Shown here: positions 4,274-6,060 of the stretch, piece by piece
How positions within the stretch are numbered: position 1 is the stretch's first letter
Layout of the letters: every line of letters starts with the position of its first letter
DNA from: a virus
Taxonomy: Duplodnaviria; Caudoviricetes
Virus record (IMG/VR): IMGVR_UViG_3300020151_001089
Coordinates: 1-57,186 of that record
Direction: 5' to 3' (one strand)
Length of the DNA stretch: 57,186 nt
Program-made: the position numbers and the translations under genes
The notes under the pieces: generated by a model
What the model saw: the letters and a program-made list of their open reading frames with translations, nothing else
Database searches by the model: none
Told to the model about the DNA's origin: nothing

Positions 4274-4530
4274 CAGTTCAATTTATTCACAAAAATTGTA
4301 ATCCTGATATGGCAAATGATAGAACTTTGCCATATACCGCATATTTGGTTGAATATGTGTGTGATGGAGATCTAACATATGATATTGTTAGTAGTCAAAA
4401 AAGAGTAGAAATTTTTGACTACTATTGGGACAAATATCGAGAAGATTTAAAATCGTTTAAACAAACTGAAGGAATGGTAAATCCTAAACTTTGGGGTCAA
4501 AAACCTAAGGAGGAAAAAAGAAAGAAATGA
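4270..4530 (+). CDS. Hypothetical protein
   Basis: TTG start preceded by GGAGGT; overlaps the upstream stop codon. Confidence 0.7.
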   Translation: MTVQFIHKNCNPDMANDRTLPYTAYLVEYVCDGDLTYDIVSSQKRVEIFDYYWDKYREDLKSFKQTEGMVNPKLWGQKPKEEKRKK

Positions 4531-4749: not shown

Positions 4750-5076
4750 ATGGGAAAACATTACTTACTTAACTTGTATGGATGCTCGTTTGTTCTTTTG
4801 GACGACGAGCGTTGCCTTATAGACTTATTAGAAAACGCAGCAGCAGCAAGTGGTGCTACTGTGGTTCAAACTATCTCTAAAAAGTTTGAACCACAGGGGG
4901 TAACTGTAATTTGTTTGCTTTCAGAAAGTCACATCTCAATCCATACTTGGCCTGAGGAAGGTAAAGCAGCAGTGGATGTATACACTTGTGGAGATTGCGA
5001 TCCTAAAATTGGTTGTGATATGATTATCGAACAACTTTTTGCTCAAAACCACACCCTAAGTTATATTGAGCGATAA
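4750..5076 (+). CDS. speD: S-adenosylmethionine decarboxylase proenzyme
   Basis: GKHYLLNLYGC...FEPQGVT...LSESHISIHTWPE...AAVDVYTCG (pyruvoyl cleavage motif ESH). Confidence 0.93.
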   Translation: MGKHYLLNLYGCSFVLLDDERCLIDLLENAAAASGATVVQTISKKFEPQGVTVICLLSESHISIHTWPEEGKAAVDVYTCGDCDPKIGCDMIIEQLFAQNHTLSYIER

Positions 5077-5426: not shown

Positions 5427-5440
5427 GTATCTCATTATAC
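5427..5440 (+). promoter_or_regulatory. NtcA-box-like site (GTA-N8-TAC)
   Basis: GTA tctcatta TAC, 8 nt upstream of a -35 element. Confidence 0.55.
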
Positions 5441-5448
5441 CTAAGTAA

Positions 5449-5477
5449 TTGACTATATATCCTAACAGGTCTAAAAT
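5449..5477 (+). promoter_or_regulatory. sigma70-type promoter
   Basis: TTGACT-17 nt-TAAAAT; predicted TSS about 5484, at the first base of the RNA motif. Confidence 0.75.
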
Positions 5478-5484
5478 GACCTAA

Positions 5485-5528
5485 CGTTCATCTGGTTTGA
5501 CCAGACGGAAGTAAGCCGACTCGGAACG
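5485..5528 (+). ncRNA. Glutamine riboswitch-like aptamer 1 (glnA/Downstream-peptide class)
   Basis: CGTTC-A-[TCTGG tttga CCAGA]-CGGAAGTAAGCCGACTCG-GAACG; P1 CGTTC/GAACG, P2 hairpin, CGGAAGTA junction. Confidence 0.75.
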
Positions 5529-5531
5529 GGA

Positions 5532-5700
5532 CGTTCATCTATGGAAGCACTCATTCTTTCATGTTTACAGGCACAATTAATTGCTGGGAGAGTTAATAAA
5601 CAGGACATTCCCAAACAAATTAAGAATGATTTGATTTGGGAAGTTAAGCAGATTTCTCCAAAAGAGTGTAAACTAGACGCAAAAGCCGACTGAAGGAACG
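5532..5700 (+). ncRNA. Glutamine riboswitch-like aptamer 2, P2 loop expanded to hold an ORF
   Basis: CGTTC-A-TCTA...(132 nt)...TAGA-CGCAAAAGCCGACTGAAG-GAACG; shares AGCCGACT and GGAACG with aptamer 1. Confidence 0.65.
5541..5693 (+). CDS. 50-aa peptide encoded inside aptamer 2 (not in ORF track)
   Basis: MEALILSCLQAQLIAGRVNKQDIPKQIKNDLIWEVKQISPKECKLDAKAD*. Confidence 0.55.
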   Translation: MEALILSCLQAQLIAGRVNKQDIPKQIKNDLIWEVKQISPKECKLDAKAD

Positions 5701-5731
5701 CTCTTTAGCCTCAAAATTAAGGAGAAACCTA

Positions 5732-5890
5732 ATGTCTAAAGTTGTATATCGTGGTGTTGAATATGACACTACAGATCGCCCTAATCAAACGTTTAAGATT
5801 GAACCACATGTAGAAATTTATCGTGGATCTATGTTTTATGTTGATGAAAATGGAAACAAACTCCATATGGAAAAATCCAAAGAGGTGTGA
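5732..5890 (+). CDS. DUF4278-like 'downstream peptide' (two YRG motifs)
   Basis: MSKVVYRGVEYDT...EIYRGSMF; SD AAGGAG; directly 3' of the riboswitch-like RNA. Confidence 0.8.
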   Translation: MSKVVYRGVEYDTTDRPNQTFKIEPHVEIYRGSMFYVDENGNKLHMEKSKEV

Positions 5891-5891
5891 A

Positions 5892-5993
5892 ATGAATACT
5901 TACTTCGTTCGTTATCTTAAGAAAAAAGCAAAAAAAGAAAAACTTCTTAAAGATGCACAACTAAATATTGCAAAGCAACCACAAATTGCTTGA
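5892..5993 (+). CDS. 33-aa basic peptide
   Basis: MNTYFVRYLKKKAKKEKLLKDAQLNIAKQPQIA*; SD GAGGTG; followed by a terminator. Confidence 0.6.
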   Translation: MNTYFVRYLKKKAKKEKLLKDAQLNIAKQPQIA

Positions 5994-5997
5994 TATA

Positions 5998-6035
5998 AGA
6001 GGGGACTTGACTTCCCCTCTTTTTTTGTGTATACT
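5998..6035 (+). promoter_or_regulatory. Terminator hairpin carrying a -35 box (promoter-stem-loop element), copy 1
   Basis: AGAGGGGA-cTTGACt-TCCCCTCT plus T run; TTGACT-17-TATACT. Confidence 0.7.
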
Positions 6036-6060
6036 ATGCTAATACTATAATATTTTTACT

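Follow-up and report, generated by a model that had tools for sequence, protein, structure and literature searches.

In cyanobacteria, gifB and other DUF4278 genes are described as controlled by type 1 (glnA) glutamine riboswitches, which act by an ON mechanism in which glutamine binding is proposed to melt a pairing that sequesters the ribosome-binding site (RBS) (Klaehn et al. 2018, PMC6212724). Such aptamers are also found in tandem, and the survey of Sherlock et al. 2022 (PMC9481103) reported 157 doublets and 4 triplets of glutamine riboswitches. As its methods are described, that survey was based on covariance models and accepted tandems only without an intervening open reading frame (ORF), so that aptamers split by an ORF would have been missed or discarded. 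Here we describe a tandem of this kind in IMG/VR virus record IMGVR_UViG_3300020151_001089, a 57 kb fragment with an estimated completeness of 27% (hereafter the window, meaning the whole stretch of DNA analysed). Megablast of the window returned psbA/psbD, thymidylate synthase and other Kyanoviridae genes, which identifies the virus as a T4-like cyanomyovirus. The tandem lies before a small IF17-like gene of the DUF4278 type, and its second aptamer is wrapped around another small gene. We give a probability of about 0.55 to the reading, drawn from sequence comparison, that the expanded P2 of this aptamer houses a real gene and that glutamine would shut off the nested gene and turn on the downstream one.

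The locus resembles the described glnA RNA and gifB switch (PMC6212724, PMC2864571) in its CGUUC/GAACG P1, its variable hairpin, the ACGGAAGUA junction of its unit 1 and its GGAACG 3' end. It also resembles the gifB switch in the DUF4278 gene downstream and in an anti-RBS strand adjoining the P1 3' strand. As in the surveyed tandems, two aptamers of the same class precede one gene, an arrangement thought to sharpen the dose response (PMC9481103). Unlike glnA RNA and gifB, however, this locus has an aptamer that encloses a protein gene and a second junction that reads ACGCAAAAG; moreover, it is phage-borne and scores just below the cut-off. No description of an ORF within a glutamine aptamer was found in the main-text literature covered, which included parts of the Weinberg 2010, Klaehn 2018, S-CREM1, Melnitz and tandem-survey papers.

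Identity of the tandem aptamers

The original prediction for this DNA, made from its letters alone, was that two glnA-type glutamine aptamers stand in tandem here and that the second wraps an ORF. Re-reading of the sequence showed that its coordinates for both units, the linker and the nested ORF were all correct (Table 1). In a 401-nt search, unit 1 matched the Rfam Glutamine model RF01739 with 34.3 bits (E 7.9e-6). It was missing from a gathering scan of the whole window because this score lies 0.7 bit under the gathering cut-off of 35. Unit 1 of phage DSL-LC02 scored 35.6 bits against the same model.

Unit 2 at full length gave no covariance-model match, either with Rfam in E-value mode or, with filters off, with R1, a model that we built from 31 compact second aptamers, because these models cannot span a unit of 169 nt. 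R1 recognized only the 3' core (5654-5698, 25.3 bits). As a natural stand-in for a loop-deleted unit 2, we used the compact homologues of phages S-PM2 and S-CREM1, in which the same two flanks surround a short hairpin and the 5' flank is identical to that of aptamer 2. These scored 33.3 bits (S-PM2, L004 914-970) and 33.5 bits (S-CREM1, L006 772-828) against RF01739, and the S-CREM1 record and paper label this second-aptamer stretch a glnA riboswitch, with a tandem score of 44.0 bits given by the authors. The Glutamine-II family (Downstream-peptide, RF01704) was considered as an alternative identity, with its pseudoknot architecture, and was not supported, since unit 1 scored 19.5 bits and S-PM2 24.6 bits, both under the cut-off of 33 and lower than RF01739 on the same bases. 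The cmsearch of the intact sequence that had been proposed with the original prediction was thus borne out in part: RF01739 gave a near-threshold match to unit 1, whereas RF01704 and the search with unit 2 as a whole were negative.

P1 (CGUUC/GAACG) is present in both units and is invariant in 31 compact and 36 long, ORF-bearing units; it gives no covariation because it never varies. In the compact units P2 does covary, with four of five pairs changing on both sides and 99% of cells paired. The two units differ at the junction and the 3' end: unit 1 has ACGGAAGUA but CUCGGAACG on the 3' side, and unit 2 has ACGCAAAAG and GAAGGAACG, where the canonical combination is ACGGAAGUA with GAAGGAACG. 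Both variants are consistent phage-wide. By these comparisons the units are near-threshold members of the glnA-type family, forming a phage subgroup in the known tandem arrangement.

The compact glnA-type pattern was also seen in genomes labelled SAR86, SAR116, Pelagibacteraceae and other marine proteobacteria (among them L291, L293, L301, L306, L313 and L349), several of them with two adjacent matches. In P-SSM4, a manA RNA (RF01745, 184 bits) lies just upstream of the tandem (L005, 315-500), and sequence very similar to manA RNA is found 3' of the unit in P-RSM6 (L410, from ~943). A weak R1 match at 4454-4476 of the window (13.8 bits, E 0.17) is probably due to chance.

The second aptamer encloses a protein-coding gene

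In unit 2, the P2 strands TCTA and TAGA close a stretch of 132 nt, and the last base of the 5' strand is the A of the nested ATG. This ATG is the first start codon following an in-frame stop and lies 9 nt past the start of P1. At the other end, the final five nested codons (tail DAKAD) and the UGA are themselves the 3' core sequence of the aptamer. We compared 36 distinct members of the family to which the nested ORF belongs. Every gap in this family is a multiple of three, the variability of the three codon positions is 0.89, 0.48 and 1.25 bits, and the median pairwise dN/dS is 0.20 in frame, compared with 0.57 and 2.73 in the other two frames. RNAalifold found no conserved structure within the ORF across the 36 members, only P1 and short local pairs, without compensatory changes. 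On this codon-level evidence the insert in aptamer 2 is a real protein-coding gene, in agreement with the claim that the aptamer wraps a genuine ORF. The proposed check of codon-level conservation had the same outcome, with the 36 members in frame and all 108 ORFs of long units intact (see below).

The predicted peptide belongs to phrog_504 (E 4.3e-5; other unit-2 peptides down to 9.2e-16), and the types nested in unit 1 match phrog_6471 and phrog_13397; PHROG annotations give no function for any of these three families. A large protein collection held 109 relatives, mostly of 50 aa, none credibly named. Searches of Pfam and the ESM Atlas gave no family and no usable match, respectively, and Foldseek returned 0 PDB matches at E <= 0.001. 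Two cysteines are the sole invariant residues across 86 aligned sequences, and AlphaFold2 predicts a two-helix hairpin for the window peptide (helices 8-19 and 25-37, pLDDT 84). Family A5, the window type, is probably homologous to family A4 (HW..C type), since hhalign aligned them with their cysteines in register (E 1.9e-5); homology of A4 and A3 was not established by the same program (E 0.018, probability 2.5%). Single-linkage clustering joined the peptides in one cluster, which may be inflated by shared composition and by tails that the aptamer encodes.

These properties bear on the role that the original prediction gave to the nested ORF, whose translation would unfold aptamer 2 and so couple ribosome traffic and glutamine sensing to the downstream gene with its YRG motifs. 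In this version, translation would mainly serve to open aptamer 2 together with the anti-Shine-Dalgarno (anti-SD) hairpin behind it, and the peptide would be a leader-peptide-like sensor. Purifying selection acts on the protein itself, not on mere translation, and for this reason the nested peptides are unlike leader peptides; the two invariant cysteines and the confident two-helix model argue in the same direction. Furthermore, glutamine codons are not enriched beyond the window's own family. We consider the leader-peptide version improbable, and return to it below with the evidence from the downstream gene.

The layout recurs in related phages

Scanning IMG/VR for the 3' core of unit 2 yielded at least 120 loci, and the layout was analysed in a set of 127, consisting of 120 IMG/VR loci among the matches listed, six isolate phages and the window; counts of pairs and of long units given here refer to these matches. 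Five loci cut at an end and six in which unit 1 was not resolved were left out, leaving 116 resolved tandem pairs: 49 short-long (the window type), 30 short-short, 19 long-long and 18 long-short. The ORF may therefore be found in aptamer 1, in aptamer 2 or in both, depending on the locus. P-SSM4 (PSSM4_169.2, 169.3) and P-HM2 (PHM2_179, 180) have an ORF in each aptamer, P-RSM6, DSL-LC02, DSL-LC03 and S-SRM01 have one in the second, and numerous related phages, of marine as well as freshwater origin, share the layout.

Each of the 108 long units contains an intact ORF, 49-73 aa in length. In every one of them the nested ATG lies 9-12 nt after CGTTCA (+9 to +12) and the nested stop falls inside or just 5' of the 3' core. 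In unit 2, 69 of 71 ORFs stop at the UGA of GACUGAAGG, which makes the aptamer core the coding sequence of the tail ...DAKAD, and in unit 1 the stop is the UAA of GCAAGUAAGCC or lies a few bases upstream. We also made the reverse test, in which 160 loci were picked by peptide similarity alone, using queries whose conserved words are not aptamer-encoded. Both aptamer halves were found around the ORF in 150 of these loci; three were cut by contig ends, two were canonical with a longer P3 that fell outside the regular expression, one was without the 3' core, and four (L277-L280) were free-standing.

Outside phages, the long-aptamer pattern was found in 1 of 401 sampled cyanobacterial genomes, compared with 9 matches of a reversed control (ACGSAAGTA-type core only), and thus nothing beyond chance was present in the sampled cyanobacteria. 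No cellular homologue of the nested peptide was found, and the free-standing L277 peptide had no relative in the genome contigs searched. Within the genomes searched, the layout is, by these matches, a phage feature.

The recurrence could also be explained if the variable P2 loop were simply a safe harbour that tolerates an inserted cassette. The gene would then be expressed constitutively from the same promoter, with no selected regulatory link, and the aptamer would work only once ribosomes leave. Homing-endonuclease ORFs in peripheral loops of group I introns and cassettes between conserved flanks in T4-type phages are analogues of such an arrangement. It would account for ORFs that are optional and occupy either aptamer or both, for the free-standing homologues and for a unit-1-type peptide in unit 2 of one locus (L105), which points to swapping between units; the conserved aptamer halves would supply the homology for recombination. 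However, the geometry is stricter than tolerance of a loop needs, with the ATG at 9-12 nt and mostly within the helix and the stop in its place in 108 of 108 long units. The nested ORFs bring no SD of their own (see below), and 150 of the 160 peptide-picked loci are embedded in both halves. We regard this explanation as unlikely, although it is the strongest of those that compete with glutamine control of the nested gene.

Several single loci show how these cassettes vary. In L105, the unit-1-type peptide (..HEPVHWTIKC..) has acquired the unit-2 tail ..DAKAD, and we take this swap to indicate cassette exchange between the two aptamers. L198 has a unit-1 ORF with an intact 5' half that has lost its 3' core and runs into the next nested ORF, and has the look of a recombinant or a deletion. 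The free-standing L277-L280 peptides are of the HW..C family (67-78 aa), with a purine-rich stretch before the start codon in L277-L279, and L280 encodes a YRG peptide on the opposite strand (1109-1231).

Conservation of the enclosing RNA

In the helix that closes the insert, 64 of 68 distinct combinations of strands form at least five contiguous pairs, compared with 10.7% when strands of different loci were mismatched (examples are UCUAUGG/CCAUAGA, UCCUCA/UGAGGA and UCUUAUGG/CCAUAAGA). The comparison was read across families because the closing helix hardly varies within one family, and read in this way the closing helix covaries with the ends of the ORF. The covariation that the original prediction had proposed to look for is thus present in P2 of compact and long units alike, with P1 invariant. 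At least one base of the ATG lies inside the closing helix in 95 of the 108 long units. In unit 1, where the 3' cores of long units are largely non-coding, 33 of 36 distinct long cores fit the consensus perfectly (0 mismatches), compared with 53 of 63 short ones.

These results bear on whether the ORF-bearing units might be decayed aptamers that bind no ligand and whose flanks are alike through gene conversion or recent descent. The weak 4-bp closing helix of the window, the lack of a covariance-model match spanning any long unit and the absence of covariation in P1 would fit such decay. Yet core conservation is as high in long units as in short ones across peptide families less than 30% identical, the closing helix covaries with the ORF ends, and long-long loci have no compact unit that could serve as a source for copying. 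Decay is in our judgment very improbable.

Initiation signals, the downstream gene and folding of the leader

The original prediction placed an SD for the nested ORF in the P1 3' strand of unit 1. This was not upheld: an SD-like 4-mer at -16 to -4 was found in 0 of 28 unit-1 nested ORFs and in 1 of 35 distinct unit-2 nested ORFs, whereas 79 of 81 distinct downstream genes have an SD. The predicted position of the tandem upstream of a YRG gene held. The gene 3' of the tandem opens with the motif M..V.YRGV.YD, and in 109 of 114 loci among the matches listed the downstream ORF has Y[RK]G among its initial 15 residues. In the window this gene matched Pfam DUF4278 with E 7e-4 and 20.4 bits, short of the cut-off of 25.3, and phrog_5049 with E 1.9e-8.

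The SD of the downstream gene is held in an 8-bp anti-SD hairpin that adjoins the P1 3' strand of aptamer 2 and appears in both free and constrained folds; the anti-SD/SD pair CTCTTTA...TAAGGAG is repeated in many loci. Four loci (L021, L040, L109 and L126) carry an extra element of ~30 nt, GGAACACGGATCAC..hairpin..AAAGGTG, between unit 2 and the SD, with a spacer of 61-62 nt. The minimum-free-energy fold computed with ViennaRNA (-64.2 kcal/mol) contains the GAACG-GGA-CGUUC hairpin that had been predicted to form across the linker and to compete with both aptamers. Enforcing the aptamers costs 1.4 kcal/mol above this fold for unit 1, 5.7 for unit 2 and 7.2 for both, as expected if ligand and tertiary contacts are needed for switching.

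In the window, the distance from the UGA of the nested ORF (5691-5693) is 8 nt to the anti-SD strand and 38 nt to the downstream ATG, a spacing at which a terminating ribosome would open the hairpin, in line with the leader-peptide version. In the 18 long-short loci, however, a complete compact aptamer stands between the ORF and the expression platform, which argues against this version. Because 18 of the 116 pairs have the ORF in aptamer 1 only, coupling to the downstream gene is not its conserved purpose, and the device role that the original prediction assigned to such coupling does not hold as a general feature (19 further pairs have an ORF in both aptamers). What is conserved is that every ORF has its own aptamer around it, which points to an aptamer that gates its own gene or is gated by it.

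A model for opposite control by glutamine

Since the nested ORF begins in the 5' strand of P2 and its final five codons and stop belong to the 3' core, a ribosome that initiates at 5541 or terminates at 5691-5693 occupies P1/P2 or the 3' core and must open aptamer 2, as had been predicted. From this arrangement of the sequence, nested translation and folding of aptamer 2 must be mutually exclusive, with the folded aptamer burying a start that has no SD. In the model that we favour, the nested gene would be translated freely, in a pioneer round, while the 3' half of the aptamer is not yet transcribed. Once this half is made, closure of P1 and P2 would compete with re-initiation, and glutamine would make closure long-lived. 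High glutamine would then turn the nested protein off and free the SD of the IF17-like gene, as in the gifB switch; at low glutamine the reverse would apply, with the nested protein on and the IF17-like gene down. One sensor would in this way have two opposite outputs, and ribosome traffic on the nested gene would set whether the leader behaves as a one-aptamer or a two-aptamer switch.

We propose more tentatively the fuller version, in which the aptamer encloses the gene that it controls and glutamine-dependent closure of a helix spanning the whole ORF toggles an SD-less gene off and the IF17-like gene on, with feedback from ribosomes and shuffling of cassettes. The shuffling of two-cysteine mini-proteins would then suggest a choice, made according to nitrogen status, between two small host-manipulating proteins.

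Several observations weigh against glutamine control of the nested gene. In thirteen of the 108 long units the contiguous helix contains no base of the ATG, and the closing helix of the window (UCUA/UAGA) is only 4 bp long, compared with 5-12 bp in its relatives. Unit 1 falls 0.7 bit short of the Rfam cut-off, and the junction of unit 2, in the compact form as well, is ACGCAAAAG and not the canonical ACGGAAGUA, which leaves glutamine as a putative ligand. The four free-standing homologues among the 160 peptide-picked loci indicate that the protein is not strictly dependent on the RNA. In short-long loci such as the window, ribosomes terminating at 5691-5693 could activate the downstream gene whatever the glutamine level and blur the opposite outputs. 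In favour of transcription, contigs from RNA libraries of several studies span relatives of the nested ORF together with both cores, but these may derive from DNA carry-over, and strand, ends and translation are not readable from them.

Relation to other regulatory RNAs

The mgtA and mgtCBR leaders of Salmonella contain the short ORFs mgtL, mgtM and mgtP, and ribosome occupancy of these ORFs picks the fold of the RNA. The present leader resembles them as an RNA that would sense a metabolite or ion and carries a translated ORF. However, the mgt ORFs have ~20 codons at most, act by translation speed and are not known to encode a conserved protein; nor are they known to sit in a helix of a defined aptamer whose ligand-binding domain contains both start and stop. 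In SAM-II, SAM-III (SMK), SAM-V and preQ1-II riboswitches, the aptamer is itself the expression platform and hides the ribosome site. Although the folded sensor would similarly conceal a ribosome landing site here, unlike in the SAM-II/SAM-V class its partner strand follows at a distance of 130-230 nt, past the end of the regulated ORF, so that closure would be possible only after the whole gene is transcribed.

Long-range closing of a start region that is opened by translating ribosomes is also found in the "Min Jou" pairing of RNA phage MS2, whose partner sequence lies within or behind a coding region, but MS2 is not known to have a ligand-binding aptamer there and the pairing controls a gene other than the translated one. 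Group I and group II introns likewise house protein genes in peripheral loops that a structured functional RNA can do without; in these introns, in contrast, start and stop codons are not known to overlap the catalytic core.

Riboswitch aptamers are usually treated as compact non-coding domains, and surveys that use covariance models, as far as their methods are described, discard arrangements with an intervening ORF; present riboswitch counts would thus miss split aptamers. At this locus a predicted ligand-binding domain and a protein gene share one RNA, in which the gene starts within a helix of the aptamer and stops within its binding core. Provided that the long units bind glutamine, they would be natural cases of long-range riboswitch folding coupled to translation, with dual output from one sensor. 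Many "hypothetical" phage mini-genes (phrog_504, phrog_6471, phrog_13397; T4-GC 429/430/541) would, if this is true, be controlled by nitrogen status when Prochlorococcus and Synechococcus are infected. P-HM2 on MED4 and P-SSM4 on NATL2A are model systems that carry the layout.

Organization of the locus

The features of the locus are collected in Table 1. We consider it somewhat probable that 5449-6030 represents a small transcription unit, of the early type, in a T4-like cyanophage, with a tandem type 1 (glnA) glutamine riboswitch as its leader before the IF17-like DUF4278 gene. By a strict regular expression, 45 of 116 loci among the matches listed have a promoter-like site similar to that of the window at 7-10 nt before unit 1.

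Table 1. Predicted features of the tandem-aptamer locus and its surroundings, in window coordinates
Feature	Position	Strand	Details
speD	4750-5076		upstream of the tandem
Sigma-70-type promoter-like site	5449-5477	+	TTGACT, 17-nt spacer, TAAAAT; 10/12 matches; 7 nt between -10 hexamer and aptamer 1
Aptamer 1, compact glnA-type glutamine aptamer	5485-5528	+	RF01739 34.3 bits; model R1 25.5 bits
Aptamer 1 P1	5485-5489 / 5524-5528	+	CGTTC / GAACG
Aptamer 1 P2	5491-5495 / 5501-5505	+	TCTGG / CCAGA; junction ACGGAAGUA
GGA linker	5529-5531	+	with flanking GAACG and CGUUC, possible competing hairpin; present in minimum-free-energy fold
Aptamer 2 (unit 2), whole	5532-5700	+	169 nt
Aptamer 2, 5' half	5532-5541	+	P1 CGUUC 5532-5536, A5537, P2 UCUA 5538-5541
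Nested ORF	5541-5693	+	50 aa, phrog_504 family; ATG 5541-5543, TGA 5691-5693
Aptamer 2, 3' half	5674-5700	+	P2 UAGA 5674-5677, core CGCAAAAGCCGACUGAAG, P1 GAACG 5696-5700; R1 match 5654-5698, 25.3 bits
Expression platform	5701-5724	+	CUCUUUAG (5701-5708), the anti-SD strand, paired with UUAAGGAG (5717-5724); the latter includes the downstream SD
DUF4278 / IF17-like small protein	5732-5890	+	two YRG motifs; canonical regulated gene
Third small ORF	5892-5993	+	33 aa, lysine-rich; no match in Pfam search
Intrinsic-terminator-like hairpin and T run	5997-6021	+	9 pairs, 5 G-C; closes the transcription unit

The third ORF (...KDAQLNIAKQ) resembles the C-terminal 'IEKE..KEAQLA' tail of DUF4278 proteins in S-CREM1, L028 and L031, and also an N-terminal module in L078 and L097, and looks like a module that is split or fused depending on the phage. 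The best DNA matches to 5440-6040 in public runs came from those labelled freshwater, lake or aquatic metagenomes, and the nearest isolate relatives, DSL-LC02, DSL-LC03 and S-SRM01, are lake and reservoir phages.

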